A stretch of 41,450 nt of DNA from an uncultured Bacteriovoracaceae bacterium (GTDB lineage Bacteria; Bdellovibrionota; UBA1018). A model generated the notes under the pieces. The model saw only the letters and a program-made list of their open reading frames with translations, had not been told where the DNA came from and searched no databases. The stretch is taken from NCBI GenBank assembly GCA_964404365.1, contig CAYOJT010000001.1, forward strand, positions 1-41,450, in the 5' to 3' direction. Below, one piece after another: positions 1,619 to 41,450 of the stretch. The position numbers and the translations under genes were made by a program. The stretch's first letter is position 1. Every line of letters begins with the position of its first letter.

Positions 1619-1663
1619 ATCCGTTCACTCCTTCTATCTGTTTCGGTCACTTCAACACGAAAG

Positions 1664-2356: not shown

Positions 2357-2385
2357 GGGTTACTCACTCTCAGTCTGTCTGAAAA

Positions 2386-4182: not shown

Positions 4183-4254
4183 GGCGGAGCTGGTTTTAGG
4201 TACCAGAACTGCGAGCCGCGAGAAAGCTTAATACGGGTGACGAGTGGGGGTAGT

Positions 4255-4443
4255 TTAGGTGACTGCGCGGACTAAAAAATACAGGACGGTCAGTGGGAAA
4301 ATGATCAGGAGGGAGACTCCGCCTTCAGTAAAAAAGACCTCGGTCCAGAACCCAGCGGGTGCAGGCGTATCGACTTGCGGAGCGGTCTTTGAAGTCGCTG
4401 GCGTAGCCGTTTTTTCAGTAGATTGTGCAGTTGACTTTTTCAT
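4255..4443 (-). CDS. small hypothetical membrane protein (62 aa)
   Basis: The ATG is preceded by GGAG 7 nt upstream on the minus strand. A Thr/Pro/Ala-rich N-terminus is followed by one hydrophobic helix (GGVSLLIIFPLTVLYFLV). It is co-oriented with lepA, 72 nt upstream of it. No family recognised. Confidence 0.4.
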   Translation of the reverse strand: MKKSTAQSTEKTATPATSKTAPQVDTPAPAGFWTEVFFTEGGVSLLIIFPLTVLYFLVRAVT

Positions 4444-4469
4444 TCAACATCTCCATACCTGGCCCATTC

Positions 4470-5645
4470 ATGGACTCTAAGACCGTATCGGATAAGACCC
4501 ACCCAACCCTGAGAGTAGAAATCGAGGATCTTTCGCGTTCAGGGTCCGGCGTGGCGCGTCAAGACACCCCTCAGGGTCGCCGCGTCGTTTTCGTGCCTCA
4601 GACGCTTTCGGGCGATGTAGCCGAAGTTCGGATTGTCCGGGAGGAGAAACGATTTGTTGAGGCTGAACTCGTTGAACTCATCCAAGCGTCGCCTGATCGC
4701 GTTTCCCCGAAGTGTGAAGTTTTCGGTCGCTGTGGCGGCTGCGCGTGGCAACACGTCCCGTATAAAAAACAATGGCAAGTGAAACGCGATGGAGTTTTCC
4801 ACGCCCTCGCACGCACCCAAGTTTCGCTCCCTGAGAGTCACCAGGAATTTCCAGCTGAAAATCCATTCGGATACAGAAATCGAATTCAACTTCGTGGAGT
4901 CGGTGCAGAGGTGGGTTTTTTCTCAAAACGCTCCCGAAGCCTTGTCGCCATTCAGCGCTGTGAAATCGCACGCGAGGAGTTGAACCGCGTTCTTCCAGAA
5001 ATTCGGAAAAAGGGCCTAGAAAAAGGCGGAGAATTCAAAGTAGAGATCGAGGTTTTACCCGACGGACAGGTTCGCGAATCCTGGAATGATCGGCATGGCG
5101 CCTTAGGTTTTCGCCAAGTGAACGATGAGCAGAACGAAAAACTAAAACACTACGTTCAGGGCCACATCGAGGATGGTGCCCACGTATTAGATCTTTACGG
5201 TGGGAACGGGAACCTTTCTCTCGGGCTCGAAAAGCGCGTTGCATGGGTCGATTGCGTGGATGTGGGGGCGCCCCGTGGTGGTGGACCGGAACAGCCGCCG
5301 AACTATCGGTTCTTTCAAACCGATGCGCCGAAGTGGATGGATCGTCGCGCGCATGAGTTTGAAAAAGGAGTCTGGGCATTGAAAGGGCCGGGAGTCGCGA
5401 TCATTGATCCGCCTAGGGAAGGACTCGGAGAGCAGCAGAACAAGATTTCTCGAAGTCTCGATTTGACGGGAGTCCAGAAGATCATTGCGGTGGGGTGCGA
5501 CCCAGATTCCTTTGCGCGCGATGTGGCGCGGTTCCAGAAGCAGGGTTGGAAAATTGTCGAAATATCCATCTTTGACCTTTTTCCTCAGACCCCCCACGTT
5601 GAGGCGGTGGGTGTTCTGGTGCGAAGAGCTGAGACAAGAAATTGA
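4470..5645 (+). CDS. rlmD: 23S rRNA (uracil-C5)-methyltransferase, RumA/RlmD family
   Basis: N-terminal TRAM-like region (LRVEIEDLSRSGSGVARQD...VFVPQTLSGDVAEVRI). Fe-S cysteine cluster CEVFGRCGGCAWQH. SAM-MTase motifs LDLYGGNGN and IIDPPREGL, plus the nucleophile Cys in AVGCDP. I chose the start at the first ATG (4470); the ORF-track GTG at 4425 would overlap the divergent small gene. Start uncertain. Confidence 0.7.
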   Translation: MDSKTVSDKTHPTLRVEIEDLSRSGSGVARQDTPQGRRVVFVPQTLSGDVAEVRIVREEKRFVEAELVELIQASPDRVSPKCEVFGRCGGCAWQHVPYKKQWQVKRDGVFHALARTQVSLPESHQEFPAENPFGYRNRIQLRGVGAEVGFFSKRSRSLVAIQRCEIAREELNRVLPEIRKKGLEKGGEFKVEIEVLPDGQVRESWNDRHGALGFRQVNDEQNEKLKHYVQGHIEDGAHVLDLYGGNGNLSLGLEKRVAWVDCVDVGAPRGGGPEQPPNYRFFQTDAPKWMDRRAHEFEKGVWALKGPGVAIIDPPREGLGEQQNKISRSLDLTGVQKIIAVGCDPDSFARDVARFQKQGWKIVEISIFDLFPQTPHVEAVGVLVRRAETRN

Positions 5646-5693
5646 CGTTTTTGAAAAATTAAGAACGACATTCATTTAGCCGATTGAGAAGAG

Positions 5694-8600: not shown

Positions 8601-10727
8601 CCGGAGCAGAAACTCACGCTCTGGAACATCTTTACTGCGAAACGTGCAAACCGATACACGGATGAGTTTTTTGAGGAAAACCTCCTGAAGGGTTGGCTGA
8701 ATGCGATCGAGCCTGAAAAGACTCGTATGGCCGAGGCTGTACTGGGTAGAGATCAGCTGCGCTCGGAGCGTATGAAGATGTTGATGACTCGACACCTGGT
8801 CGAACCAAAACTCGATGAGCTTTCGAAAGTCAAAGGTAAGGTTCCGGATAATGTAGTTTTCGACCTCGTCGGGACAATCCAGCGTTACAACCAACCTTCC
8901 TCGCGATTTAAAGATGATTTCATCGAAGAAATCGCCTGGAAGCTCGAGTTGAGTGAAAAACAATGCATGCGCTTCATCGAGCCAATGAAGAGTTTTAATT
9001 ATAAGGGGATTGATCCACGTACATTAAACGCGCTCTCGGCTCTTTCAGTTTCGCTCGAGTACTTGAGTGTGAAAGAAAAACTCCAGTTTCTTAGACACAT
9101 TCAAAACCCGGTGGATGATCTGATTCGGACGATTCCAAATTTAAAACGTGTGATCGAGACGGTGGGTAAGGCCTCAAATAAGACCGCCGAAGTTGAAGCA
9201 ATCTTCGATTATTTGGAGACCTTTATTCGTGATGCCAGCGATGGCGAAAAATTAGTGTTGTCCGAAGTCCTCATCGGAACAAGAGGGCATGGTTTATGGT
9301 TTAAGGGGCCTGAGGTTCGTAATGAACTCTACGAGCTTGCGGGCTTTAAAGGGAACGACGAGAAGCGACTTCTTTTTGAGTCCTACATTAAGGCTCTTCC
9401 AGCCCACGAGCATTCGCTTACCCTGTCTTACTTGATCAGTACGTATTCGCCGAAGCCTCAAAATGAACTTTTGAAGACTCTTGAGCTATTTGGAACTCCA
9501 GGAATCAAGTTCGCGCAAATGGCCTCTATCATGCAGGTTTTTGGTCCGGAGCGTTCTGCGGAATTGAGTAAGGCGAAAAATCGCGCGGCTCCTCCTACCC
9601 GCTCTGAAATCTACGGCTTGTTACGTGGGCGTATGAGTCCCGAAGAGTTTTCGAAAATTACGCGCGTAAAGAAACTCCTGGGCTCGGGTTCGATCAAATT
9701 TGTCGTGTCGGTTGAGTTTTCCGATGGCCGCTCGGAAGCGGTTTATATTCGTAGACCATTTCTGGATGACACGATTCGAGACACGCTCGACCTTTCTGAG
9801 AGATGGATGACAGAACTCAGGAAGGACGAGGGTTACGCGAACAAATTCGATTACGATTATTATATTCGGACTCTCAGGCAGCAGCTCGCGGATGAAATCC
9901 AGTTTAAACGTGAATTTGATCTCACGAAAAAAATGAACGAATTGTACGGAAAGGTTCGCTCTTATAAAGGGTGGCGTTTCCAACCCGTGAGCGCATCTTC
10001 GAAAAGTGTGCAGGGGGATAGCGTTCTTTTTTATTCGGAAGTTAAGGGCGCGGTTACATTCGACATGCTCACAGAAGCCCAGAAGCTTGAAGTCGGTCCG
10101 TATATTTTAAAAACGGAACTTGAGTTTCTATTTGCAGGCCAATTCGATGCCGATCGCCACATTGGAAACTATTTGATCGATGCCAGTTCGAAGAGGATTT
10201 ATCCTCTCGATCTAGCTCAGTCCTATTCGCTCAATCGGAATCGCTTTTTCACGGAGGGCGATCCGTATTATTTAGCAAAGATATTCTTGGGATTGGGTCA
10301 TGACGACAAGACAAAAGGTGCAAAAATTCTTTCAGAGACCTTTGTTAAACTCCACGACGCGCCCAACGTGATTTCGAGAGAAACTCAGGCGCTTCTAGCC
10401 TCCGAAATTGAGGCGATTCTGAAGTACGTGAATGCCGACGGTACACGTCTTCCGATGAACGAAGTATTTGTAAAAATTCTCGATCGCCTCAACTTCCATC
10501 GAGTCCGACTGCCAAGCCGCATGAGCTTAGGTGTTGTGAAGGATTTGTTGATTATTCTGAATGAGGAATACGCTAAAACTGTTCCCGCGAAGGTGCGAGA
10601 CGGGATCATCAAATCCTTTGTTCGGAAGCAAATAGTCTTGGGCGCGAGATACACCGTGTTTGATAAGATTGAAGATCTTTTCTCAACGAAGGTGAACTGC
10701 AGAGATATCACACACGATGTCCTTTAG
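5694..10727 (+). CDS. giant secreted multidomain protein (1,677 aa): signal peptide + M48-like zinc-protease module + long helical region + C-terminal ABC1/UbiB-like atypical kinase module
   Basis: Signal-peptide-like N-terminus (HFITSIAFALALASPIFSVEA|KE). The M48-type pattern is ...EPTAFVA...GYVYFSTGLLDKM...MTGVIAHEFAHPKQ (HEFAH = nt 6288-6302), followed by DEATTDFLGMRLL (E-x-x-x-D third-ligand region). The C-terminal ABC1-like motifs are GTPGIKFAQMASI (nt 9501-), LGSGSIKFVV, AVYIRRP, QFKREFDLTKKMNELY, FDADRHIGNYLID (nt 10143-) and PLDLAQ. ATG at 5730 (MSASG...) is an alternative start. Confidence 0.75.
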   Translation: MLLSTSCWRVMRMSASGIHFITSIAFALALASPIFSVEAKEKNSPAITSSQVKRLRKPASDELKFHVYEKYVRGLSNKEASHLKGIFDSYAVIDLEASGLTAWRSWLDEVTERLTESVMKHGDQYPTYRIEILASDEPTAFVAKFRNAGFESYRGYVYFSTGLLDKMAATLQGAGKKVSDLNPELFQKVLDGMTGVIAHEFAHPKQDETVKWSWRSAQDKSTFNHGQVDEATTDFLGMRLLKDAELPPDNMLTGLQLLFGDKPENSNRVIRILQGGLSTHPQDNLRLNLNRGALTQLRMKEGLVEAKAISVPVGDLLLESKIAETGTSLRTQVRGMFISGLPENASEFSRVLELLKRNLRESGSAYSNRRYTKLLNQIVQEGYAPNSDEQKAYLAFYDSILANSENKREGVLRCKSLALSAFNTYDDLVAPGTYFPDSYKKRQVRVSPWARRPNQARAFRLPLGETPKILSDLQTQAFEKAWSEMSVPEKVHAIDHLDPLFERNLIEKAFEQLATEVGAHDELIQVEFHLARWARGITFNQTEKIDHFAYAELKKIMSQVPFSEQKFIPRMMKYFLYERVPLLYLKERARKDAAFLAVYNDVFGVPVEDLLRHADNPPALGIDLAQMLTSSERPSLLSWQVSPYKENLPILQKADRPYLGAYWNRIQEIFNSDQNQKAIVFYAEYYQKADEFVKSNSSARFFGNWANYANAQPEKVAEPIHEVLIGGLPDLKKKLTYIYNSVPNGPLNWQFYADMFPLIKAGEEELYWNSIKQGTNNELKILDILRKRKQITPEVYATRSAKLLEPVEGKMRTAVTALDHFSTHIIWKDLQEGAEKAPGTFLKYVLDSFDLGKFDRALDQRESTNNALKVKLKYHPDYVEPLAKVHKGLKSDFLKYIGYTKQFKNFSVTDPEFRRIFVENFAKAQEYLALVFNPDGMWLSAEIRQQFNGGPFDRLLFEFVPVVPVEDLSPEQKLTLWNIFTAKRANRYTDEFFEENLLKGWLNAIEPEKTRMAEAVLGRDQLRSERMKMLMTRHLVEPKLDELSKVKGKVPDNVVFDLVGTIQRYNQPSSRFKDDFIEEIAWKLELSEKQCMRFIEPMKSFNYKGIDPRTLNALSALSVSLEYLSVKEKLQFLRHIQNPVDDLIRTIPNLKRVIETVGKASNKTAEVEAIFDYLETFIRDASDGEKLVLSEVLIGTRGHGLWFKGPEVRNELYELAGFKGNDEKRLLFESYIKALPAHEHSLTLSYLISTYSPKPQNELLKTLELFGTPGIKFAQMASIMQVFGPERSAELSKAKNRAAPPTRSEIYGLLRGRMSPEEFSKITRVKKLLGSGSIKFVVSVEFSDGRSEAVYIRRPFLDDTIRDTLDLSERWMTELRKDEGYANKFDYDYYIRTLRQQLADEIQFKREFDLTKKMNELYGKVRSYKGWRFQPVSASSKSVQGDSVLFYSEVKGAVTFDMLTEAQKLEVGPYILKTELEFLFAGQFDADRHIGNYLIDASSKRIYPLDLAQSYSLNRNRFFTEGDPYYLAKIFLGLGHDDKTKGAKILSETFVKLHDAPNVISRETQALLASEIEAILKYVNADGTRLPMNEVFVKILDRLNFHRVRLPSRMSLGVVKDLLIILNEEYAKTVPAKVRDGIIKSFVRKQIVLGARYTVFDKIEDLFSTKVNCRDITHDVL

Positions 10728-10765
10728 CTGAGGACTAGTGAGGTTCGCCTAAAACTCGGGCTATC

Positions 10766-11512
10766 TTACCAGTTTCGTTTTTCGGCTACACCACTCTTAT
10801 CCGCGGCGAGTAGCTGTTCCTGGAGGTCTTTAATCCCAGAGTCGGCTGCGCGACCAAACCACATCGAAAAGATGCGCCTTGAAGCTCCAATTCCTACGAG
10901 AGCTTTTTGAAGAAAGCCTTCGCCGTTCACGAAGAGCAAGGTCTGGTTCGCATCGCCATTTTTCTTAAGACCAATCCAAATCGTTTGGCCCTCTTTTATG
11001 TCCCCACTTTTTTTCACCATATCGAGGAGTTCTTTTGCGACAGGGTCCTTATCTGGAAAGAAGCGATTTTCAGCGAGCGAGTCGGTGAAGCCCGCGAGGA
11101 GTTTTGCGTTATCGACGTCGCGGAGGAAGGTCATCGACATTGCCGCGACAGAAGCCTTTTCAATTGAATCGAACGCAGCGGCGATCGTTGATTTCTGGAA
11201 GACAGCATCATCATTCATGAAGACCTGGCCGACGTAGACCTTAGGCCAAAGAATCGCGATCTGTTTTTTTCGAATTCCAGCCGCAACGCGTTTCAAACTT
11301 TCCTTTTTTCCATCCACATCGATCGTCAAACTTTTGGCGAGAGGTACTTTCTCTAACCGGATCTCACCCGGCACAGAACTGAAGATCGAACTTGGCTCGG
11401 CAGCCCTGCTAGGGGCGGATAGAGCGAGAAGTCCAAGCGAGGAAAGTAGAAGTACACTCAGTAAAATTAGGGATGAACTCTTATTTTTTGAAACTGTTTT
11501 CATAACGGACAT
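10766..11512 (-). CDS. secreted chalcone-isomerase-like family protein (function unknown)
   Basis: 248-aa ORF. AAGGAGAG lies 6 nt upstream of the ATG. Signal peptide LILLSVLLLSSLGLLALSAPSRA|AE. Core pattern LKRVAAGIRKKQIAILWPKVYVGQVFM matches the bacterial chalcone-isomerase-like fold (G-x-G-x-R-x-K...KVY...). Confidence 0.5.
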   Translation of the reverse strand: MSVMKTVSKNKSSSLILLSVLLLSSLGLLALSAPSRAAEPSSIFSSVPGEIRLEKVPLAKSLTIDVDGKKESLKRVAAGIRKKQIAILWPKVYVGQVFMNDDAVFQKSTIAAAFDSIEKASVAAMSMTFLRDVDNAKLLAGFTDSLAENRFFPDKDPVAKELLDMVKKSGDIKEGQTIWIGLKKNGDANQTLLFVNGEGFLQKALVGIGASRRIFSMWFGRAADSGIKDLQEQLLAADKSGVAEKRNW

Positions 11513-11524
11513 CGTAACTCTCCT

Positions 11525-11553
11525 TTGACACGTAAGGAAGCACCTCGTAAATT
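11525..11553 (+). promoter_or_regulatory. candidate sigma70-type promoter for the TPR lipoprotein gene
   Basis: Perfect -35 TTGACA (11525-11530), a 17-nt spacer, then -10 TAAATT (11548-11553; 4/6). The predicted transcription start is within a few nt of the ATG at 11563, which implies a very short or absent leader. Confidence 0.35.
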
Positions 11554-11562
11554 AAAAGAAGA

Positions 11563-12354
11563 ATGGTTTCGAGAACTTGCAAGACTTTAGCGTCTCTTCT
11601 AATCCCGCTTTTTCTTTTTGGATCATGTTCGTCTACTCCGAAGACTTCGTCCACTGAGGAAATCAAAGGCACTCCACGCGAGAAGGCCGCGATCCTCGTT
11701 GAGGCAGCAAATGGATCGATGATTGAAAAGGATCCGATCGGAGCGCTTCAGTATTTGAAAACGGCTGAAGGCTACGATCCGAATTATGCACCCATTTATC
11801 ATGCCAAGGCGCTCGCCTTTCATATGCGAAAGGACTACGCGCGCGCGCTTACTGAAATGAAGCATTCGGTCGAGCTCGATCCGAATAATTCTTACGCGAA
11901 TAACACTTACGGAAAACTTTTGATGGATGCTAACCGCATTCCCGAAGCGCAGAAATTTCTTAGAAAAGCCGCGAGTGATTCGACTTTCCGCGAGGCGTAT
12001 AAAGCAAACACAAGTTTAGGAATCATTGCGTATCGCGAAGGTAAACTCGAAGAAGCGACGATGGTTTTTGATAAGGCTATTACCGATAATCCTGCAAATG
12101 CGTGCATCGCCCTTTATTACAAAGGGCATATTGCATTGAAAAGAAACGAGCTATCGGCCGCGACGAAGTTTTACGAAAAGGCCTCCACTAAATTGTGTTC
12201 AGCTTTCCCGGATGCGCACCTTGCACTCGGTATGGCGCTTGAGCGCGAGAAGAAAAATGATTTAGCTCGTAAGAAATATTTAGAATTTCAGCAGAATTTT
12301 CCAGAAACCAAGGCGGCTCTGACGGCACAAGACCGCTTACGCAAACTGCAGTAG
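11563..12354 (+). CDS. TPR-repeat lipoprotein, PilF/PilW-like (type IV pilus biogenesis/stability family)
   Basis: 263-aa ORF with a lipobox-like LFLFGSC after a short basic N-terminus. It has multiple TPR units (e.g. YHAKALAFHMRKDYARALTEMKHSVELDPNN, NTYGKLLMDANRIPEAQKFLRKA). It sits immediately upstream of rodZ, the pilF/pilW-rodZ synteny known from proteobacteria. Confidence 0.55.
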   Translation: MVSRTCKTLASLLIPLFLFGSCSSTPKTSSTEEIKGTPREKAAILVEAANGSMIEKDPIGALQYLKTAEGYDPNYAPIYHAKALAFHMRKDYARALTEMKHSVELDPNNSYANNTYGKLLMDANRIPEAQKFLRKAASDSTFREAYKANTSLGIIAYREGKLEEATMVFDKAITDNPANACIALYYKGHIALKRNELSAATKFYEKASTKLCSAFPDAHLALGMALEREKKNDLARKKYLEFQQNFPETKAALTAQDRLRKLQ

Positions 12355-31568: not shown

Positions 31569-32384
31569 ATGCGGAATAGGGCTCAATTCGAAACCATTCG
31601 GAAACTAGCTAGAATCGTGGCTGTTTTTTCAGTCTCTTTGAGCGCCCAAGCGGCGGCACCGACAAAACTTTACCTCTTCGGCGGGGGTCCGAAGCCAAAA
31701 ATCGCACTTTCTTCATTTTTCAAAGAAGCAGATCAGGGATCGAAAAGGGTTCTTTTTATTACTTGGGCAACCGCTTACCCGGAGGAAACCTGTGAAGCCT
31801 TTAAAAGCGAGGCGGCGGAAATTACGACCGGTTCGATTGAATGTTCTCCGACCGCATCTGAAGTGAAATCGAATCCCTCGGCGATGCTCAAGAAATTGAG
31901 TCAAGCTTCGGCGATTTTTTTCTCAGGTGGAGATCAATCTCGCATCATGAATGTTTTCGATTCTGAACCTCATTTATTGAGGACTTTGAGGTCCGCGTTC
32001 AAATCAGGAGTTCCAGTGGCGGGAACGAGTGCAGGCACTGCTATTCAGTCGGATTGGATGATTGAGCGCGAAGTCATTCCCGGATCAGAGGAACCTGAGG
32101 CGGTTGAAGTTCGAACCGGTGTAGGACTCATGCGGGCAGGGTTCGTGGTTGATCAGCATTTTTTAAAGCGGAATCGAGATAAACGCCTCATAGCGGCGAT
32201 GAAAAAGACTTCCGAACCCAATGGACTTGGGGTCGACGAAGGGGCTGCGGCCCTGATTTTAAGTTCTCGGCACATGCTTGTTTTTGAAGGTACCGCGCGC
32301 CTGTACTACCGGGACCACGGCGGATTTAAGTACATTGATCGCACTCCCTCTGATCGTGTTTTTGATTTAGACGAAGTTCATTGA
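31569..32384 (+). CDS. cyanophycinase-like peptidase (family S51), with signal peptide
   Basis: Signal peptide IVAVFSVSLSAQA|AAP. S51/cyanophycinase motifs LYLFGGG, IFFSGGDQSRI, AGTSAGTAIQS (nucleophile Ser), VDQHFLKRNRDKRL and GLGVDEGAAAL. Confidence 0.75.
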   Translation: MRNRAQFETIRKLARIVAVFSVSLSAQAAAPTKLYLFGGGPKPKIALSSFFKEADQGSKRVLFITWATAYPEETCEAFKSEAAEITTGSIECSPTASEVKSNPSAMLKKLSQASAIFFSGGDQSRIMNVFDSEPHLLRTLRSAFKSGVPVAGTSAGTAIQSDWMIEREVIPGSEEPEAVEVRTGVGLMRAGFVVDQHFLKRNRDKRLIAAMKKTSEPNGLGVDEGAAALILSSRHMLVFEGTARLYYRDHGGFKYIDRTPSDRVFDLDEVH

Positions 32385-32489
32385 TTCTACACTCGTCAAA
32401 ACTTCAGTCAGTTCACTTATCTCAATCATCATATAGTCTAGTTCACTGGGGCTGCGCTGGCGTAGGACTTGCGAAAGCACGTCACAATT

Positions 32490-32828
32490 ATGCGTAACTA
32501 CTTAAAAATTTCAGCGTTGTTGGTCAGTTTCATTGCGAGCGCAGTCTACGCCGATGCCTGCAAAGAGGTCGCTACCCACAGTGACGATCAAAAGGTGCTC
32601 TCCGATTGTTTTGAAAAACTGTCGCTGAAAAAGCGCTATAGCAAACACATCGAAACCCACCAGACCTTCACTCTGTCGGGCGAAATGGTCTCCAATGCAT
32701 GCTATAAAGGTTGGTTTTCAAATCGCGAAACGAAGAAGGACGTGCTCCTCGCCCTTTGTGAATCTACGACCTACCTCGAACTTGGAACTTCCGTAAGTTA
32801 CGAAGCGACTCGGATCCGCGATCGTTGA
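32490..32828 (+). CDS. small secreted cysteine-containing hypothetical protein (112 aa)
   Basis: From ATG at 32490: MRNYLKISALLVSFIASAVYA|DACKE... It has a signal peptide and four Cys in the mature part. No family recognised. It ends 4 nt from the convergent smc stop. Confidence 0.4.
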   Translation: MRNYLKISALLVSFIASAVYADACKEVATHSDDQKVLSDCFEKLSLKKRYSKHIETHQTFTLSGEMVSNACYKGWFSNRETKKDVLLALCESTTYLELGTSVSYEATRIRDR

Positions 32829-32832
32829 TCTC

Positions 32833-35800
32833 TTAGTGTAATTCGATCGAAACCATCTTCGACACGCCCGGTTCTTCCATCGTCACGCCGTAGAGCGTGT
32901 CGTTCAGTTCCATCGTTTTCTTGTTGTGCGTGATGATGATGAATTGGGACTTCGTCGACATCTCACGAAGGAGCGCGTTGAATTTCCCGATGTTTGCGTC
33001 GTCAAGCGGCGCATCGACCTCGTCCAGAATACAGAACGGAGATGGCTTCACCATGAAGATCGCGAAAATGAGCGATACGGCGGTGAGAGCTTTCTCTCCC
33101 CCGGAGAGAAGACCGATATTGACGATCTTTTTCCCTGGAGGCTGAGCGAGGATGTCGACTCCCGCTTCTAAAATGTCGGTCACACCTTCTGGATAAACGA
33201 GCGAAAGTTTCGCCTGACCGCCACCAAAAATGATTGGGAAGAGGCGCTCGAAACGATCTGCGATCGCTTCGAAAGCTTTTTGGAAACGTTCGACCGAAGT
33301 CTTGTTGATGTGCTCAATCGCTTGATTGAGGTCATCCATGGACTTCAGAAGGTCGTTTTTCTCGCTCATGAGGTAATCGAAACGCTTTTTCTTCTCGTCG
33401 TATTCTTCGACAGCGGTTGGGTTTACATCACCCAAACGTCTGATTTTTTCACGAAGGCGTTCAACTTCTTCCGCTAGGATCTTCTCCTCTTCCGCAGACA
33501 TTTCGTGAGTAACGACCGGATCGTTCATCTCTTCTTGAATTGGAGAAACGGAAGGAGCGTCCAAGCAGCCTGGGCCGTATTTCTCTTCCAGGTTCTGGAG
33601 GAGGTGAGAAAGTTCTGCGGTCATGCGCTCGATATCGAGCGAGAACTGAGTTGCCGCGGCCGTCTTTTCATCGCCAGCCGAGTGAAGTTCTTTAATTCGA
33701 TCCATCGCGCCGTTTACTTTTGCAGAAACGGTCTCAAGACGGTCGCGCATTCCTGCGAATGCTTCACGTTTTTCTGAAAGCGCGCGGGTGAGTTCTTCGA
33801 TGCGAACAACGAATTCGCTGTCTCCACCGGAATGTTCTTCGTTTTCAGCGCGAGCACGCTCTAACTGGCGCTCGACATCCGAGAGGCGACGCTCACGATC
33901 GCGAATGAGGTTCATTCCCGCTTCAAGTTCGCGGTGAATCGAACCTGCGCGCTCTTTTAAGCCCGCTTCCGTTATTTTAAGAGCGTTAAATTCTTCTTCC
34001 ATTCCGCGGAGCGACATCTCGAGTTGCGCGAGGTCTTGTTCAGAGGAGCGAATTTTAGACTCAAGTTCGGCCTTCGCGGTTTGAAGCGCGGAAAGTTGTT
34101 CAAGAGTCGACTGACGCTCATGGATGGAGTTTTCTTCTTCGGACTTCATCTCTGCGAGTTCGTACTCTTCGAGTTCGAGCGCAGATTTCGCTTCATTCAA
34201 TGAGCGCGCGGTTGTTTGAACGTCGCGCTCGCAGGTTGCGGAGAGGATTTCAGCCGCATGGAGTTCGATTTTAAGAGCCGAAAGGTTCGCATCCATCATC
34301 TCGAGTTGAGAAGAGAGATTTTGAACGAGAGTTTCATGTTCTTTGTTCGCGATTTCAGCTTTTTCTACAAGCGCTTTCATCTCTGCGATCACGCGTTTGC
34401 GACCGAGGAGGGAAGCAGAGTTGTCGGATTGAGTTGCGCCGCCTTTCAGCGACCCATCTTGAGCGAAAACTTCGCCGTTTTTCGAAACGATGGAGAATCC
34501 GCCGAGAGACTGAATTCCGCCGTTTTGGATGAGGCTCGGGATCGCGTCGAAGTTTTCAACCACAAGCGCGTTCGAGAGGAGGCTCATCGCAGCTGAGCGC
34601 CCCGAGGAACCGAGCTTGTCGTTTACCTGAACGAAATCGGAAAGCGTTCCGACGACAGAGAAACCCGAAGCGGCGAGTTTTGATTTCGCGCTCGATGCGT
34701 CCATGGCGCCCAGCGTGTTCGAGCTGACGTAGATCGTCGCGCGACCTTGTCCGCCGTTTGACAGTTCGCGGAGAGCTTCAAGAGCAAATGCAGCGTCGTC
34801 CGAGGTCAGGTTTTCGAGTTTCCCTTCCAACCAACCTTCTACGGCTTTCTCGAAACCCGCTTGAATATCGAGTCCATCTGCAAGGGCTTTTAGGCTGCCA
34901 TCGCGGCCATTGTTTTTTGCCCAATCCAGTACGGATTTAGGTCCATCGCCGAATCCTTCGAATGCAGCGTCGAGTTCTTCGAGAGAGGAAAGACGTGACT
35001 TCATTTTCAGAAGTTCGTGTGAGGATTCTTCGAAGGCGCGCTTTTCAGCTTTCGTTTCTTGGTCTTTGCTTTCAAAAGTGGCCGAGAGCTCTTTGCACTC
35101 CGATTGAAGTGAAGATTTCTTCGACGAAGCCGCAGCGAATGCGCTTTGGGCGCGTTCCGCTTCTTGTGCGACAAGCGCGACTTTCTCTTGAAGAGAAATG
35201 ATCTGTTGATTCAAGCGCTCGACTTGAGCATGTGCGGACTCGGCTTTGGATGCGAGACCGGCCGCGCGTGAATTTAAGTCGGAATCGCGAGCAATAGACG
35301 CCATGAGTTCGCGCTTCAAAGTATCGACCGATTTACGTGCCGATTCGGTTTCAGAGCGAACGGAACGAAGCGCTTCTTCTTTAAGGGAGGCGCGTTCTTT
35401 TGCTGCCTCGAAGTCAGAGCTCGCGCTTGCGCTCTCAGATTCAAGACTCGAAATCTTCGACTTCTCATTTTCGATCGCAGCGCGAAGATCTACACGCTCG
35501 GACTCGAAGGTTTCCACCTGAGTTTGAAGGTCGAGCTGGCGGCGCTTCGAAAGATCGAGAGCCGACTGAGTGCGAGTCAGCTCGCCCGACATTTCGTTGA
35601 TCGCGTTTTGATAGTCTTCAGCCTGTTTCGAGAGTGTGAGTTGCTCGATACGGTCAGATTCGATCGAAAGTTCCGCGGTGGAAAGCTCTGCGCGGAGACC
35701 TGCGATTTCTTGTTCTAATGTTTCACGCTGAGAACGAGCGCTTTCTAGTTTTTCGCGCAAAACCTTATTTTTCCTTCGTCCCCAAGTCATTTCTTTATCG

Positions 35801-36510
35801 AGGAGTTCGGCTTTGAAGGTTTTGTACTGAGCGGCTTTATGCGCCTGACGCTCGAGAGAGTTCACGGAGCGTTCGATTTCGGCGATCACGTCGTTGAGGC
35901 GTGCGAGGTTTGCCGTCGCGCTTTCTAATTTTCTGAGAGATTCCTGTTTACGCTTTTTATATTTCGCAATACCAGCCGCTTCTTCGATCAGTGTGCGGCG
36001 ATCTTCGGGTTTAGCGTTAACGATTTTCTGGATCTCGCCCTGGGCAATGATGGAGTAGCCTTTTGCGCCGACCCCGGTATCCAAGAAAAGTTCATGAATG
36101 TCTTTCAAGCGAGCGGGAACACCATTGATGAGGTATTCGCCTTCGCCTGTGCGGTACACGCGGCGGGTGACGGAAACTTCTTTTGCTCTTAAGTGAATCG
36201 GAACGTCTTTTACGGTCGCGCCAGCAGGTGCGTTTTCGGTGTCTGGAGCGTCGGTCTCCATGACGAGAGTCGCTTCAGCGAGAGCGAGGGGTTGGTACTT
36301 GGAGGAGCCATTGAAAATGAGGTCGGCCGAGCCGCCTGCGCGGATGTGTTTATGAGACTGTTCACCCATGACCCAAAAGAACGCGTCGACGATATTAGAC
36401 TTACCGCACCCGTTGGGTCCGACAATCCCCGTAATATCGTGATCGAAGTGGATCACTGTTTTGTCTTTGAATGATTTAAAACCTTGTACTTCCAACCGCT
36501 TAACGCGCAT
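32833..36510 (-). CDS. smc: chromosome partition protein Smc
   Basis: 1,225-aa ORF with Walker A GPNGCGKSN. It has long coiled-coil arms around a central hinge (GGFSIVSKNGEVF...). C-terminal signature LSGGEKALTAVSLIFAIF and Walker B FCILDEVDAPLD. Confidence 0.96.
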   Translation of the reverse strand: MRVKRLEVQGFKSFKDKTVIHFDHDITGIVGPNGCGKSNIVDAFFWVMGEQSHKHIRAGGSADLIFNGSSKYQPLALAEATLVMETDAPDTENAPAGATVKDVPIHLRAKEVSVTRRVYRTGEGEYLINGVPARLKDIHELFLDTGVGAKGYSIIAQGEIQKIVNAKPEDRRTLIEEAAGIAKYKKRKQESLRKLESATANLARLNDVIAEIERSVNSLERQAHKAAQYKTFKAELLDKEMTWGRRKNKVLREKLESARSQRETLEQEIAGLRAELSTAELSIESDRIEQLTLSKQAEDYQNAINEMSGELTRTQSALDLSKRRQLDLQTQVETFESERVDLRAAIENEKSKISSLESESASASSDFEAAKERASLKEEALRSVRSETESARKSVDTLKRELMASIARDSDLNSRAAGLASKAESAHAQVERLNQQIISLQEKVALVAQEAERAQSAFAAASSKKSSLQSECKELSATFESKDQETKAEKRAFEESSHELLKMKSRLSSLEELDAAFEGFGDGPKSVLDWAKNNGRDGSLKALADGLDIQAGFEKAVEGWLEGKLENLTSDDAAFALEALRELSNGGQGRATIYVSSNTLGAMDASSAKSKLAASGFSVVGTLSDFVQVNDKLGSSGRSAAMSLLSNALVVENFDAIPSLIQNGGIQSLGGFSIVSKNGEVFAQDGSLKGGATQSDNSASLLGRKRVIAEMKALVEKAEIANKEHETLVQNLSSQLEMMDANLSALKIELHAAEILSATCERDVQTTARSLNEAKSALELEEYELAEMKSEEENSIHERQSTLEQLSALQTAKAELESKIRSSEQDLAQLEMSLRGMEEEFNALKITEAGLKERAGSIHRELEAGMNLIRDRERRLSDVERQLERARAENEEHSGGDSEFVVRIEELTRALSEKREAFAGMRDRLETVSAKVNGAMDRIKELHSAGDEKTAAATQFSLDIERMTAELSHLLQNLEEKYGPGCLDAPSVSPIQEEMNDPVVTHEMSAEEEKILAEEVERLREKIRRLGDVNPTAVEEYDEKKKRFDYLMSEKNDLLKSMDDLNQAIEHINKTSVERFQKAFEAIADRFERLFPIIFGGGQAKLSLVYPEGVTDILEAGVDILAQPPGKKIVNIGLLSGGEKALTAVSLIFAIFMVKPSPFCILDEVDAPLDDANIGKFNALLREMSTKSQFIIITHNKKTMELNDTLYGVTMEEPGVSKMVSIELH

Positions 36511-36701
36511 CTATATGGCCCCTCAAAGAATACAAGTCTGGTTGGATTTAACGTATCAAATGAGAGGCAAAAGGCAAGGAAACGTGTCGGGATTTTGGCG
36601 GTGCTCAGTGAAGGATAAAATTTAAAATTTCGCGCCGCATAAAATAGAAGTTCTTCCTTTGATTTCGTGCAGTTCGTCCGCACTTTCGCCGAAGAGAACT
36701 C

Positions 36702-39700
36702 ATGCGAATTCGTTTCGTAGATGGGGTCGTGTCACTTGCACTTGTGCTCACACAGGTGAGTGGCGCAGTTGCGAGTGGTGGGGGAGGTACTCCTTCTCCA
36801 GCTCCGAAAGTTCCCATGACGAGTTCTGGTTTAACTTACGCGGTTCGTTTTGCGCGTATGAATCCGAAAGTCACCGTCGACCAGAAAAAGGCAGTCGCTC
36901 AGAAGGCGTTTGAGTTTATTCGCGAAAGAGTGGCCAAGAACTTAGATCTTAAATCCCCCGAAGATCTTTATCGTGAGTTCGCAACTCACCCTGATCTGAT
37001 GAAGGGCTGGAACAAAACGAGCGATGGTAAACGGATTAAAGATCCGGATTTGGGTGAACTCGTTTCCGAGTTCAATTTGCTGATTTCACAACTGGACGTC
37101 GAAAAGACGCTTGGAAAATGTAAGGACTACAAAAGGAACTTGGGCGCGGCTCTTATGGAAGGCACCTGTTCCGTGTGCGGCTGTCGTGAAGGATTTGGTT
37201 GGGAAAATAATCTCCACTTAAGCTGGGCTGCAAAGCAAGGTCAGAAGAAAGGCAAGAGCGGCAAGAGCTCGAAAGAGCTAAAGGAACCTTCAAAACCCAA
37301 GGAGTATTCCGCTTGGATGCCCGGATTCGCATTCGGAAAGAATATTGAACAGCTCATCGGTATCTCGGATCTGGGCACCTACTTCGCGAGTAGTGCGCGC
37401 TCTGGCGATCCGTTTGCGCCTACGCTTGATGAAGTAAAAACGAAGAGACCGGATTTAAAGACGCCGGAAGATCTCGCTGCGGTCGCCATGATGGCGGAGT
37501 TTCGTGGAAACGCTTATAAGCGCGCGATGCTTTCCGGTCTGAAGAGCGAACTCGTGAACGAAATTCAATTTTCGGATAAATACCTTGGAAAATCTCAAGA
37601 CGAAATCGCCTCCCTCATCGACAAGCGCGTCGATGAAGAGGTTTCGAAGCAATGCAATCATTGTAGTCTGAGTCGTGCGATCGATCAGGACTTACGCACG
37701 AAACTCAAAAACACGATGCGCTCTGAGATTTACAGCGGATCCGCTGCGCCCTATGCGAGTCGTGATGCTGCTGCGCAGCTGTGTGGTGAATTAAAAGCAC
37801 TGAATTATGTCTTCGACACCGAATACCAAAAGCAGATGCGTGCTGCCTATTTAAGTGGGAACGGTGGAAAAGAACCGCGAGGCGGACTCCACAACACGCA
37901 GTTTTCGAATGCGGAAAATGCACAAGCGCCCGTGAAGCTTAGACTCGATCGCGAGCGCCGGAAAGTTCTCAGTACCGTTATCAATTCCTCTCAAACGGGA
38001 AAACTCATGCTGACTAAGGCGATGACTTGGTTGGATGGAAATAATGCCGGAAACACGCGCCTTAAGTGTACTCCCGGTTCCGAGAAGGAAGATGCAGAAC
38101 TTATCGTAAAAGCGGAAGCAGAGGCAGTAGAGGCCGGCAATAAATTTACAAAAAAGTTGAACGACAACGTTCACCCTAACGACTACTCCCTCAAGACTTT
38201 CAACGAAGACTTAATAACACTTCTTAAAATCTCACCGCACCCATTTGGCGAGGCAGTCATGCTTTCCTCATCGCCCGGGCAGGCCTCGAAGTTTGCGTGC
38301 GATCTCATTCAGGTGGTCAGCGACCAGGATCTTGCTGACGCCTATTTAGATGATGCGATTCTTTGGGGTACGGTGGGTTTGACGGTCTTGTCTTTAGGTA
38401 CCCTTTCGCCACTCTCGATGGCCGGTCTCGCTGTGAACGCAACCATCGGTGTAGCTTCGGCTACAGGATCTCTGATTCACTCGAATATCGCATACACGAA
38501 TGCGGCGAATTACAGGACTTGGTCGATCGCGCAGGATTTCGATCCTTATCTCAGGAACTTCAGTCAAAAGGAATATGAACGCTACCAATCGCTTCAAACG
38601 ATGGCCGTGATCGGTTACGGGTTTACCGTTTTAGATTTAAATTCGATCGTCATGAAAGCGATCAAGAGCGGTAAAACGACGAGCGAGGCCCTCGCCGAAG
38701 CGGAAAATCTACTCCGTTCGCCGCCTGAAAAAATCTACACCGAGGTATTAACCACAGATGCTGAGGTTGTCCTCGGTGGTGGAAAGACGGTCTCTAAGAG
38801 TCAGGGTAAGGCACTCTATAAAGCGGCCCAAGTCGACATCGAAAGCGCGAAAACCGTCCTCAAGGATGCCGGGTTCGCGGATAAAGAAGTAGAGTTACTT
38901 CTCGCGCGCCGGATTAAAGAAGAAGCGAAAGTTATTGTTGAAAAACCGACTGTAAAAGAACTGGATGGAGTGGTTGTCACTGGGACCAAACGGAAGCCAG
39001 TGACCGGGACGCGGACCGAGTTTGGTCCTGGGCTACAGCGAGATCTCTTTAAACCTGGAGAGTTCGACGAGATTCTTAAGACCAAAGGTGTTGTCGGCCT
39101 TCAAGAAGAGTTAGAAAAAATTGGACTTAAAACTAAGAAGGTGGTTCTAGAACGTGAGGTCGAGGTGCAGGGTGAAATTGTCACACGCAAGTATGACGCT
39201 TTGATGCTTGATCCAGCGTTGTTGTCAGAGTCGAACGTCACTACGAATCATCTCGTTAACTATTTGAGACGTGCTCAACAACGTGCGGGCTCAAATGCAC
39301 CTGGAGTTGATGTAATTTTTCGACTTGATGACTTCGGAATCAAAGAGCTCGGTGATTTCTCACAAATAGGAAAGGTGAAAGAAGCTACATTCAGCAAACA
39401 AGTTTTTGAAGAATACTTGAGAACGGGTGATGCGGGCCCAATCATCAAGCACGAATACCGCCATTATCTTTTGTACAATAAAGCGGGTGTCAGTGACGAT
39501 CTCCAGATTATTTTTGAAGGCATGTCAGTTTCTGGCTACGAAGACCGTTTGGTCATGCATGAATACTACAACTATCATCGCCAGGTGTGGGAAGAGTTCG
39601 CTACCGCAGATATGCGAAGTGCACGTTCGAAAATATTTTCGAAACTCGATGAAAAAAGTGTCTTAACCAAGTCCGACCTTACAGAACTTGTAAAGGATAA

Positions 39701-41150
39701 TGGACGCCTGAATGCGGCAGCCCGAAGGAGTAAACAAGCGGGAGCGACTGCGACTGAGATGAATGAAAATATCATTAGCTTTGTCCAAGAGTTTACAAAG
39801 ATTAAGTCCGGACTCAGCACAGAAACGGCGATTATTACGCCATCGCAGTATGGGGTGACCGTTGAGGCTAAAGTAAATGGAAAATGGGTAACTGCGGATG
39901 TTCCGTGTAAATCATGTGAGCTACTCACCGATGATCTCACTGGGCCGGCACGGACTGCAATCGAACAGCAGGTAAAAGAAGAAGTGGGGAAAAGTTTCGA
40001 GAATCTCTACAGCCGTGCGATCAAAGAGCGAGAGCTCTTCGCGGAACTGAAAGCAGTTGAGAACAAGATTGAATTCCAGATTTTTAGTGAAACCCCAGTG
40101 AATTCGAAGGAGCTCAAGGAGCTTTATCTTAGACAGGAAAAATTACGCCAACAGATATCTAGAGAGGTGGGCGTCGACGGAAAAAATACCCAAAACTTCG
40201 TCCGTCCATCTACCGGTCAATCCCGCATCACAACTCAGACCCGCGATCGCGCCTACGGAAATACCGAAGGCATCGGAAAAGTGGATTTCTCAGGAAATAA
40301 AAAGTACCTGGGCGGAACAAATATCCTAAAGACGGAGACTCAACCCGAGCGAGTGACGGCATTTCGGGATGCGTACAATCAGGGAAAAATTACGCGAGAT
40401 ATGAAAATTTCCTTCCAGTATGGAAACGGGGGCTCATGGGAAACAGCCCACATCGTCGGCTACGATAAATCAAAGGGTATTGTCCGTGTTCGAATTGGTA
40501 ATGATCCGCGAAATACGATCGTTTTGGATGAGTATCAGATCATGACGGCGAAGGAGATCCCTTACGCTCCTGGAAAATTTGAGAGTAAAGAATTCAAACT
40601 CGAACGTTTTTCGTTCGATAAAGAGCCTGAGCTTGTGGTGGAAAAAACAAACCCCGAAAGTTCGGTGAAAATTAATTCTGAAAAAAAGCATACAACCACA
40701 CCCTTAACGGTCGTCGATGTTCCAGTAAACTCGGGACCCGTCATGGCTGAAATAAAAACCGAAACTGGAATTTATAAAACTACCTTTAAACAGGAGCAAG
40801 CTTACCAGAAGTGGGTCGGCGAGACTCCGACCACACACCCTGGTGTAAGTGGATTAAATGCGACGAAATCCACCGAGAAATTTTATTATATGAATGAGAC
40901 TGAAACAGTTTATAAAAACTTGGTTTCCGTCAAATCTAACGAAGCTTTCGATTTGATAAAGGTTCGGGCGCCGGATGGAAAAATCGTAGAGTATAAGAAA
41001 CCCATCTTTCTCGAACGATCCAAATCATTTTTGAAAATCGAAGTTGATGGAGTGAAAAAGACATTTTACTGGAGAGAAGTCATGCAAATCGACGGAAAGG
41101 GTTTTAGTAGATCGTATCCTGACCCTAAGCCGTTCCAGCTTCAGCCTTAA
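36702..41150 (+). CDS. giant orphan protein (1,482 aa): signal peptide, central hydrophobic hairpin, candidate HExxH motif, beta-rich C-terminus
   Basis: Signal peptide VVSLALVLTQVSGAVA|SGGGG. Cys motifs CSVCGC (~37164-37190) and CNHC. Hydrophobic segments at aa 552-592 (nt 38355-38477) and aa 631-651 (nt 38592-38654). HEYRH at aa 917-921 (nt 39450-39464), followed by MHEYYNYH (aa 952-959). No family recognised by eye. It is divergent from smc. Confidence 0.7.
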   Translation: MRIRFVDGVVSLALVLTQVSGAVASGGGGTPSPAPKVPMTSSGLTYAVRFARMNPKVTVDQKKAVAQKAFEFIRERVAKNLDLKSPEDLYREFATHPDLMKGWNKTSDGKRIKDPDLGELVSEFNLLISQLDVEKTLGKCKDYKRNLGAALMEGTCSVCGCREGFGWENNLHLSWAAKQGQKKGKSGKSSKELKEPSKPKEYSAWMPGFAFGKNIEQLIGISDLGTYFASSARSGDPFAPTLDEVKTKRPDLKTPEDLAAVAMMAEFRGNAYKRAMLSGLKSELVNEIQFSDKYLGKSQDEIASLIDKRVDEEVSKQCNHCSLSRAIDQDLRTKLKNTMRSEIYSGSAAPYASRDAAAQLCGELKALNYVFDTEYQKQMRAAYLSGNGGKEPRGGLHNTQFSNAENAQAPVKLRLDRERRKVLSTVINSSQTGKLMLTKAMTWLDGNNAGNTRLKCTPGSEKEDAELIVKAEAEAVEAGNKFTKKLNDNVHPNDYSLKTFNEDLITLLKISPHPFGEAVMLSSSPGQASKFACDLIQVVSDQDLADAYLDDAILWGTVGLTVLSLGTLSPLSMAGLAVNATIGVASATGSLIHSNIAYTNAANYRTWSIAQDFDPYLRNFSQKEYERYQSLQTMAVIGYGFTVLDLNSIVMKAIKSGKTTSEALAEAENLLRSPPEKIYTEVLTTDAEVVLGGGKTVSKSQGKALYKAAQVDIESAKTVLKDAGFADKEVELLLARRIKEEAKVIVEKPTVKELDGVVVTGTKRKPVTGTRTEFGPGLQRDLFKPGEFDEILKTKGVVGLQEELEKIGLKTKKVVLEREVEVQGEIVTRKYDALMLDPALLSESNVTTNHLVNYLRRAQQRAGSNAPGVDVIFRLDDFGIKELGDFSQIGKVKEATFSKQVFEEYLRTGDAGPIIKHEYRHYLLYNKAGVSDDLQIIFEGMSVSGYEDRLVMHEYYNYHRQVWEEFATADMRSARSKIFSKLDEKSVLTKSDLTELVKDNGRLNAAARRSKQAGATATEMNENIISFVQEFTKIKSGLSTETAIITPSQYGVTVEAKVNGKWVTADVPCKSCELLTDDLTGPARTAIEQQVKEEVGKSFENLYSRAIKERELFAELKAVENKIEFQIFSETPVNSKELKELYLRQEKLRQQISREVGVDGKNTQNFVRPSTGQSRITTQTRDRAYGNTEGIGKVDFSGNKKYLGGTNILKTETQPERVTAFRDAYNQGKITRDMKISFQYGNGGSWETAHIVGYDKSKGIVRVRIGNDPRNTIVLDEYQIMTAKEIPYAPGKFESKEFKLERFSFDKEPELVVEKTNPESSVKINSEKKHTTTPLTVVDVPVNSGPVMAEIKTETGIYKTTFKQEQAYQKWVGETPTTHPGVSGLNATKSTEKFYYMNETETVYKNLVSVKSNEAFDLIKVRAPDGKIVEYKKPIFLERSKSFLKIEVDGVKKTFYWREVMQIDGKGFSRSYPDPKPFQLQP

Positions 41151-41450
41151 TTCGCGGTTTTTCCCGGTAACCGCTTTCGAAGCAGCATCAGATTCGTCGT
41201 AGGAAGGCGAAAGCGCTTCCCCATCTCGATGATCTGATCGACGCCCTCATGCATTTGCTTTTCAACTTTGGTGAAATGGACTCGGAAGAAGGACTCGGTA
41301 TCGAGAGGAGAAATCAGTGAAAAGATCCGCCAAGCGAGTCGAATAAACCAGGGCCTGAAAACGAGTTTCGCGCCAAGCGATTCGCCGGGATTCGGAATTT
41401 TTCGATCATGCGCTAAAATGGGGAGTGTCTCATGAGCCGCATCACAAACG
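41147..41450 (-). CDS. hypothetical protein, C-terminal ~100 codons (5' end outside the window)
   Basis: This gene is absent from the ORF track. The minus-strand frame stays open from the window edge to TAA (41149-41147): ...HETLPILAHDRKIPNPGESLGAKLVFRPWFIRLAWRIFSLISPLDTESFFRVHFTKVEKQMHEGVDQIIEMGKRFRLPTTNLMLLRKRLPGKTAN*. The other two minus frames contain stops. No family recognised. Confidence 0.4.
   Translation of the reverse strand, partial: VCDAAHETLPILAHDRKIPNPGESLGAKLVFRPWFIRLAWRIFSLISPLDTESFFRVHFTKVEKQMHEGVDQIIEMGKRFRLPTTNLMLLRKRLPGKTAN

Follow-up and report, generated by a model that had tools for sequence, protein, structure and literature searches.

An undescribed family of leader-bearing proteins with interchangeable C-terminal domains includes a 1482-residue protein encoded next to smc in a Bacteriovoracaceae bacterium

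We analysed a 41,450-nucleotide stretch of DNA from an uncultured Bacteriovoracaceae bacterium (contig CAYOJT010000001.1 of assembly GCA_964404365.1; the whole stretch is referred to as the window), in which a complete open reading frame (ORF) on the forward strand, 36702..41150, runs from an ATG start to a TAA stop and encodes a protein of 1482 amino acids, hereafter the giant. We found that residues 1-672 of the giant belong to an undescribed family of leader-bearing proteins, in which this conserved part, the N-module, is fused to interchangeable C-terminal domains. The N-module accounts for the N-terminal 45% of the giant and a unique C-terminus for the other 55%. The original prediction for this DNA had presented the ORF as an orphan with a toxin-like layout of signal peptide, N-domain, hydrophobic hairpin and large C-domain. 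This layout is indeed present in ORF 36702..41150, and the orphan status holds for the C-terminal 810 residues, but not for the N-terminal 45%, for which at least 20 homolog clusters exist.

The family was delineated with an exhaustive HMMER (phmmer) scan of residues 283-1482 against 1.84 billion cluster representatives, which returned 20 homologs of 592-1644 residues, at E-values between 1.6e-33 and 3.2e-4 and with 24-36% identity. In all 20 of them the best-scoring stretch was confined to query positions 6-532, equivalent to residues ~290-815 of the full protein. The full alignments (A2) carry the homology from the signal peptide to about residue 672, where it stops at a common '..KSGK..' boundary, and the alignment to the family's profile hidden Markov model (HMM) ends at residue 671. 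The homolog lengths have to be read bearing in mind that P0002 (860 residues) is an N-terminally truncated call, whose 90%-identity cluster comprises full-length proteins of 1236-1246 residues together with many fragments of 173-198 residues. Within the window, the N-module HMM matched one ORF only, the giant itself, with an E-value (9e-191) that is partly circular given that the giant is in the alignment. Kinship with the other giant ORF of the window (5694-10727) was rejected.

Searches of the giant against Pfam, NCBIfam, PADLOC, PHROGs and PDB sequences gave nothing better than an E-value of 0.05, so that the earlier statement that the protein has no recognisable family is correct for these resources, but not for uncurated sequence space. 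A word-indexed search of the whole protein against 5.8 billion clusters returned only the self-match, from a single 66.8-kb NCBI contig, a pattern and tblastn scan of GTDB genomes revealed no relative of the giant, and a tighter family alignment (A6) gave no confirmed match in the metagenomes of the Joint Genome Institute (JGI). The literature on Bdellovibrio yielded no description of a comparable family of polymorphic toxins or effectors. As far as sampled, the N-module family has been seen only in Bdellovibrionota-like genomes. The homolog P0015 lies on contig JAGTJX010000004.1 (loci L034/L083), which is labelled Lysobacteraceae/Xanthomonadaceae; the SMC protein of L034 is ~50% identical to those of many Bdellovibrionota, and this label looks doubtful.

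Downstream of the common boundary the family members part ways. Closely related N-modules are followed by unrelated C-termini, as in the pairs P0007/P0011, P0003/P0012 and P0011/P0016, whose N-modules are 61%, 60% and 56% identical, respectively. Conversely, a kinase-like cargo is found in P0007, P0010, P0013, P0015 and P0017, even though their N-modules are only 27-36% identical. This kinase-like domain, which is present in three tandem copies in P0015, matched in profile searches of the PDB the C. elegans FAM20 homolog 4kqa (E 2.8e-8), PI4K type II (E 6e-6) and FAM20B, FAM20C and FAM20A (E 1e-4 to 6e-4). The likeness to the FAM20/PI4K type II kinase fold concerns the cargo of these members, whereas the giant does not contain the domain and has a dissimilar C-terminus. 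Other cargos include a weak match to NTP_transf_2 in the C-terminus of P0011, DUF5636 in that of P0014, a ~300-residue HE[FY]QH domain common to P0015, P0017 and P0018 (HExxH being absent from the N-modules), and ~65-residue beta-modules (FRxAYxxGxF..YVSF..AKVVG..) that recur in P0003-P0006 and P0033. Several homolog C-termini match nothing, single-sequence searches of P0003, P0009 and P0010 against the PDB gave nothing useful, and in P0020 and P0021 the N-module makes up the whole protein.

Some of the homolog loci deserve a description of their own. P0015 (L083 8001-12935) carries the three tandem FAM20/PI4K-like domains followed by the HEFQH domain, and P0017 (L084 8001-11507) has one kinase-like domain plus the HExxH domain. 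A conserved 198-residue gene without a Pfam match lies 31-42 bp downstream of both, on the same strand, and could encode a partner or an immunity-type protein for that cargo. Locus L084 also contains, 1.8 kb from P0017, a 1579-residue ORF without a Pfam match (1501-6240, reverse strand). The N-module-only P0021 (639 residues; L087 7001-8920) overlaps by 13 nt with a 1122-residue ORF (8908-12276), which has no Pfam match and no similarity to the giant. Because this ORF has a signal peptide of its own, we consider it to encode a separate protein and rejected the idea of a 'split' cargo in this locus; the pair may represent a two-gene version, that is, a module and a separately exported partner, or a coincidence.

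The N-module of the giant is built from the following parts:

36702..36773, forward strand: Sec-type signal peptide, residues 1-24, with a putative cleavage site between AVA and S (sequence and hydropathy)
36774..36815, forward strand: Gly/Pro-rich linker SGGGGTPSPAPKVP, residues 25-38 (direct reading)
36816..38351, forward strand: conserved all-alpha ectodomain, residues 39-550 (alignment A2 and structure model)
37653..37664, forward strand: invariant CxxC motif, CNHC, residues 318-321 (both Cys in 17/17 full-length N-modules)
38352..38483, forward strand: Gly/Ala/Ser/Thr/Leu-rich hydrophobic hairpin, residues 551-594 (hydropathy and invariant columns)
38484..38717, forward strand: post-hairpin amphipathic helices, residues 595-672, including A635 and the KSGK boundary (alignment A2 and structure model)

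The cleavable-looking signal peptide and the Gly/Pro linker are thus where they had been predicted. The leader reads MRIRF-VDGVVSLALVLTQVSGAVA and is followed by SGGGG; it combines a basic n-region with a hydrophobic core (Kyte-Doolittle maximum 1.73), and those family members whose N-terminus is present likewise begin with hydrophobic leaders, which end in AFA, FAQ, WAQ or YAQ (small-residue sites). Seven cysteines are conserved, namely C140, C161, C318, C321, C361, C456 and C533, each in 14-17 of the 17 full-length N-modules. The motifs CSVCGC at residue 156 and CNHC at residue 318, which had been pointed out before, are both present as quoted, and both cysteines of the latter are invariant, but only the last cysteine of CSVCGC is conserved in the family. 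Invariant residues other than cysteine are limited to G516, A635, W555, G556 and G566, and a GGDGLL.LT motif is also conserved.

An AlphaFold2 (AF2) model of the N-module, built from the 20-sequence family alignment, is almost wholly alpha-helical, with a mean predicted local distance difference test (pLDDT) of 77 and a predicted template modelling score (pTM) of 0.76; residues 1-37 have a pLDDT <50. Foldseek found no relative of this model in the PDB (best E 0.87, TM-score <=0.12) or in BFVD (best E 0.11), and no colicin, diphtheria-toxin T-domain or Bcl-2-like structure was among the PDB matches listed.

The hydrophobic stretch, previously placed at residues 552-592, was found by hydropathy at residues 551-592 and is uncharged. 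It opens with the invariant W555, G556 and G566 (WG...G motif). In all 20 aligned members the hairpin region spans 53-82 residues, is rich in Gly/Ala/Ser/Thr/Val/Leu and falls into two halves, between which lies a short, mostly uncharged turn, often with Pro. In P0005 the two hydrophobic halves are separated by a Glu-containing insert, which therefore indicates two segments, i.e. a hairpin. In the AF2 model, long helices at 525-555 and 581-610 border a hydrophobic stretch at 557-583, and helices 581-610, 615-640 and 643-655 close the conserved module. Residues 557-583 are the sole long internal stretch with a pLDDT <50, and are not modelled as a buried core helix, one of the alternatives that the original prediction had named as its own refutation.

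How hydrophobic the hairpin is matters for the topology. The best 19-mer has a summed Hessa insertion free energy (dG) of +3.5 kcal/mol in the giant and of +1.0 to +4.6 across the 20 members; by this crude, position-independent sum, the segments do not reach the favourable insertion energy expected of stop-transfer transmembrane helices, compared with which the hydrophobicity of the hairpin appears marginal. The second hydrophobic helix of the original prediction (631-651) exists, but it is amphipathic, contains an Asp and, with a summed dG of +5.9, is not transmembrane-like; across the family, the values for the helix after the hairpin range from +4.4 to +9.8, and an acidic residue is usually found in it. 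With a cleaved leader and either two spans or no span at all, both the N-domain and the C-terminal region would be placed on the extracytoplasmic side.

The genomic neighbourhood of the giant's gene is as follows:

32833..36510, reverse strand: smc (Pfam SMC_N, E 5e-64, and SMC_hinge)
36511..36701: intergenic region separating smc from the divergently oriented ORF (sequence)
41147..41450, reverse strand: 3' end of a conserved gene, cut by the end of the window (tblastn, 41-44% identity to L001, L002, L062 and L014)

The flanks are those given by the original prediction, smc and a truncated gene; the latter is convergent, and its stop codon (41147-41149, reverse strand) overlaps that of the ORF. 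No strong sigma-70-like site was reported in 36511..36701. The closest SMC proteins, drawn from 79 related loci, are 65-67% identical and come from metagenome-assembled genomes (MAGs) labelled Bacteriovoracaceae, Bdellovibrionales or Oligoflexia. In L001, L002, L014 and L062, the four closest loci with enough flank, the gene immediately upstream of smc, in the same orientation, is the ortholog of the 41147-41450 gene. The window has the 4.4-kb ORF between these two genes, on the strand opposite to both. Since the flanks are adjacent in these four loci, and since none of the 79 related smc loci encodes a relative of the giant (tblastn), the ORF represents a lineage-specific insertion that separates two conserved genes otherwise found side by side. 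No tRNA, flanking repeat or mobile-element signature was found around the insertion.

The genes of the other family members are found in differing neighbourhoods in every sampled locus, with the exception of the syntenic P0015/P0017 pair; these neighbourhoods include a ribosomal-protein/SecY cluster, recA, recG/greA and a patatin gene. Neither an immunity-like nor a secretion-system gene recurs beside the family genes in the homolog loci sampled, and neither the window nor the 7-8 kb around the family genes in eight distinct contexts contains genes for type V, VI or VII secretion systems (T5SS, T6SS, T7SS), PAAR/RHS or similar proteins. An immunity gene is not present downstream of the ORF, where the neighbour is the convergent conserved syntenic gene, and in the homolog loci no small ORF consistently follows the family gene.

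Further features of the region concern the neighbours themselves. The conserved gene that precedes smc (L001 8874-9881; 335-350 residues) is syntenic and has no Pfam match. In L001 and L002, lolA follows smc within ~180-360 bp; in the window, a Peptidase_S51 gene (31569-32384, forward strand, E 8e-16) and an ORF of 119 residues with a leader-like N-terminus and no Pfam match (32469-32828, forward strand) lie between the LolA gene and smc, and appear to be a further small insertion next to smc that is specific to the lineage. The second giant ORF of the window (5694-10727, forward strand; 1677 residues, G+C content 0.467) has a leader-like N-terminus, a Peptidase_M48 match (residues 105-210, E 8e-6) and an ABC1 atypical kinase-like domain (residues 1327-1508, E 1e-5), which makes it a further large multidomain protein of the window, one that combines a protease with a kinase match.

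The C-terminus of the giant comprises the following features:

38718..41147, forward strand: lineage-specific orphan 'cargo' region, residues 673-1482 (no homologs)
38778..38915, forward strand: short helical linker motif ..LKDAGFADKEVELLLARRI.., residues 693-738 (phmmer within the family)
39450..39578, forward strand: HEYRH (HExxH), residues 917-921, and the His cluster H917, H921, H953, H959, a candidate metal site (regular expression)
39942..40169, forward strand: tentative long helices, charged and coiled-coil-like, residues ~1081-1156 (low-confidence model)
40359..40562, forward strand: beta-module FRDAYNQG..ISF..AHIVGY..VRVRIG.., residues 1220-1287 (family module HMM, alignment A5)
40941..41105, forward strand: second beta-rich segment, residues 1414-1468 (strands in the low-confidence model)

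No homolog was found for residues 673-1482, as the phmmer scan of 1.84 billion representatives puts every best-scoring stretch in the N-module; nor did this region match anything, including any recognised toxin domain, in Pfam, NCBIfam, PADLOC, PHROGs or PDB sequences, or any ORF of nine family loci (phmmer). A single-sequence AF2 model of the C-terminal 810 residues (pLDDT 37.6, pTM 0.24) is unusable for conclusions on the fold. Its best-modelled part, with a pLDDT of 59-79, is residues 693-738, which are weakly common to P0002 and P0015 (E 0.0024-0.0056 in a database of only 20 sequences). Residues 1220-1287 align over their full length with the family beta-module (A5), at an HMM score of 4.1 that was equalled by ~5/500 shuffles. 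The weak PDB and Pfam matches of this beta-module all concern small barrels of the SH3-like kind, namely Spt5 KOW, BPL_C, ProQ_C and, as the best PDB match of the A5 profile, a designed SH3 barrel (E 0.14); the best BPL_C value, E 1.7e-4, was obtained with the beta-module copy of one homolog, not with that of the giant. Residues 1220-1287 are possibly an SH3-like barrel common to family members. For residues 1414-1468 no similarity was found. The two beta-rich peptides quoted in the original prediction start at residues 1246 and 1419, and its SH3/Tudor-like guess is in keeping with matches that are weak but agree with one another.

The HEYRH motif raises the possibility that the cargo is a zinc metalloprotease toxin with a zincin-type site formed by HEYRH together with E939, E947, H953, E954 and H959, an identity that we regard as quite unlikely. 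Such a motif turns up in only 1.1% of composition-matched whole-protein shuffles, four of the 15 histidines of the protein fall within residues 917-959, HE[FY]QH occurs in the cargo of three family members and never in the N-module, and the other giant of the window has its Peptidase_M48 match. Against this, there is no peptidase match in Pfam, NCBIfam or the PDB at E-values up to 1-10, the HEYRH region is modelled at a pLDDT <40 with no helix or fold to support a site, and a profile of the HExxH domain of P0015, P0017 and P0018 found nothing in the giant, hhalign aligning only the 8-residue motif with a probability of 1.3%. Homology between the HExxH region of the giant and this family cargo was accordingly rejected at the domain level.

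Taken as a whole, the giant could be a Sec-exported effector, whose conserved module delivers or inserts into a membrane via the hairpin and whose C-terminus is the payload, a proposal that we consider evenly balanced between being right and being wrong. The giant would be exported through Sec, as its hairpin would not be hydrophobic enough to arrest transfer at the inner membrane of the producer, and the conserved cysteines would form disulfides outside the cytoplasm. The N-module would then act as a delivery or anchoring device, with its hairpin entering a target membrane (of prey or host), and the inserted hairpin would position or translocate the C-terminal cargo. The latter may be a novel set of domains, in which a possibly metal-binding HExxH/His cluster precedes helical segments and SH3-like beta-modules with a potential role in binding to components of the envelope. 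We arrived at the effector proposal because of the shuffling of cargo, the sporadic insertion of the genes, the extracytoplasmic placement of ATP- or NTP-dependent cargo in homologs and a hairpin that seems apt to pass Sec rather than to be halted there. An ATP- or NTP-dependent cargo on the exported side argues for action in the cytoplasm of another cell.

This architecture invites comparison with polymorphic toxin systems, a concept that reportedly goes back to Zhang, Aravind and colleagues. A conserved N-terminal trafficking part combined with interchangeable C-terminal enzymatic domains, a sharp breakpoint across which cargo kinship disagrees with N-module kinship, and genes that are lineage-specific insertions are shared with these systems. 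Unlike them, the giant has no adjacent immunity gene and no RHS, filamentous or PAAR-type repeats, its cargo matches no known toxin domain, its N-module is not a described trafficking domain, and it relies on a Sec leader only, with no link to a T5SS, T6SS or T7SS. Three features that define polymorphic toxin systems are thus lacking, as the giant has no immunity gene beside it, no recognised toxin domain and no dedicated route of secretion.

Among self-translocating toxins of the AB type and pore-forming colicins, the diphtheria toxin T domain and the hydrophobic helical hairpin of colicins are the relevant comparators. As in these, a helical domain contains a ~40-residue Ala/Gly-rich hydrophobic hairpin between amphipathic helices, in a protein predicted to be soluble, exported and potentially membrane-inserting. 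However, the Foldseek result given above shows no structural similarity, and there is none in sequence; moreover, the hairpin module of the giant is N-terminal and its cargo C-terminal, the module is far larger (~630 residues), and a Sec leader would mediate export. The Inc proteins of Chlamydia and those Legionella effectors that are anchored by a hairpin share with the family a bilobed hydrophobic stretch of ~40 residues, a predicted hairpin with both flanks on the same side, and variable flanking domains. Those proteins are substrates of type III or type IV secretion systems without Sec leaders, usually with the hairpin near the N-terminus, whereas here a cleavable Sec leader and a 520-residue conserved ectodomain precede it; a Foldseek match of the N-module model to the N-domain of LegC3 in the PDB was not significant (E 1.6). 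The likeness to AB toxins, colicins and Inc-type proteins is thus limited to the ~40-residue hydrophobic hairpin. What is new is an N-module without known sequence or structural relatives on an architecture of the polymorphic toxin/effector type.

Several observations weigh against the effector proposal. While the toxin- or effector-like reading of the original prediction gains indirect support from a conserved N-module fused to differing C-termini, the analysis revealed neither a toxin activity nor an immunity gene or a delivery apparatus: the giant has no recognisable toxin domain in Pfam, NCBIfam or PDB sequences, and neither here nor in the homolog loci is there a downstream immunity-like gene or a set of dedicated secretion or delivery genes. 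The model of the C-terminus is unusable, and its HExxH motif is uncorroborated. The existence of P0020 and P0021 as N-modules without cargo means that the module may have a function of its own, unrelated to cargo delivery. FAM20-type kinases act in secretory compartments of eukaryotes, so that a kinase cargo need not strictly require the cytoplasm of a target. The topology argument makes use of a crude hydrophobicity sum, and the same sequence features would be seen if the hairpin were anchored in the inner membrane of the producer itself. Lastly, the lineage is MAG-like, its closest SMC being only 67% identical.

This resident topology is the basis of an explanation that we judge possible, though rather unlikely, namely that the giant is an envelope protein whose signal peptide is removed and whose hairpin anchors it in the inner membrane of the producer, with both large domains in the periplasm, where it would serve the cell's own envelope biology (scaffolding, or contacts with peptidoglycan or the outer membrane via the SH3-like modules). 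A signal peptide followed by two adjacent hydrophobic segments would yield an N-out/C-out topology, the conserved cysteines suit the periplasm, members made up of the N-module alone exist, and the family genes lie among housekeeping genes without immunity or secretion partners. Yet in no member is the hairpin more than marginally hydrophobic (dG above 0 throughout), and its turn is mostly uncharged, with no consistent Lys/Arg excess in the aligned hairpin sequences. In addition, the kinase-like and nucleotidyltransferase-like cargos would face an ATP-free periplasm, and housekeeping envelope proteins seldom swap whole C-terminal domains between close relatives and are seldom lineage-specific insertions.

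A transmembrane sensor, with the Cys-containing N-domain in the periplasm, an odd number of membrane crossings and the variable C-terminal domains as cytoplasmic outputs, would resolve the difficulty of ATP supply, as the cytoplasm provides ATP for such cargos. A leader, a large extracytoplasmic domain, a hydrophobic region and a variable enzymatic C-terminus also make up a receptor-type architecture, for which a lack of immunity genes is expected. We nevertheless consider this reading improbable: the ~40-residue region in two halves and the acidic insert of P0005 point to an even number of passes, the third helix (with the dG values and the acidic residue described above) is unlikely to span the membrane, no HAMP, PAS, HisKA, GGDEF or similar signalling domain was detected in any member, and SH3-like beta-modules and the triplicated kinase-like domains of P0015 are atypical of sensors.

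That the ORF results from misassembly, is chimeric or is a pseudogene in decay, as might be suspected from its single copy on one contig in public data, its C-terminal half without homologs and a G+C content that falls along the ORF (from 0.497 in the first 672 codons, i.e. the N-module, to 0.441 in the last third), has next to no probability, given that the 4.4-kb frame is unbroken, that the N-module can be aligned with its homologs over its full length and retains every conserved residue, that the boundary between module and cargo is at exactly the same place as in other family members and that the flanks are colinear with related genomes. The 1482-residue ORF is a real gene, because the chance of 810 stop-free C-terminal codons, computed from base composition, is ~2e-22, and because its codon usage is the nearest to the window average among all 29 genes (Kullback-Leibler divergence 0.063).

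The composition of the ORF does not set it apart from its surroundings. The count of 46 G+C at 40801-40900 reported in the original prediction was exact on recount, but a low G+C content is not distinctive, since the overall value of 0.472 lies within the gene-to-gene spread of the window (0.44-0.54). A recent horizontal transfer was rejected as far as composition is concerned, as both G+C content and codon usage are within the range of the window. A phage or defence origin was likewise rejected, with no support from PHROGs, PADLOC or BFVD (best BFVD E 0.11).

Returning to the effector proposal, its most far-reaching form, which we consider unlikely, is that the N-module is a self-contained delivery device of Bdellovibrio-like predators, whose hairpin enters the cytoplasmic membrane of prey or host and carries an enzyme cargo across, without a dedicated injection apparatus. 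If true, this would be an AB-toxin-like answer to the question of how periplasmic or epibiotic predators bring enzymes into the cytoplasm of their prey, and the 810-residue cargo would be a completely new type of effector. According to a 2025 review (PMC12428579), there is still little evidence on what the secreted enzymes and the secretion systems of predators do, and the family provides concrete candidates, in which an exported membrane-hairpin module is coupled to swappable enzymes (FAM20/PI4K-like kinases and the HExxH domain). The N-module (~630 residues), with no sequence family or PDB structural relative, is a new fold-level target, to which the giant adds 810 residues without relatives among the 1.84 billion cluster representatives. 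Should the module turn out to be a resident envelope anchor, these proteins would nonetheless constitute a new family with unusual domain shuffling, so far seen only in Bdellovibrionota-like genomes.

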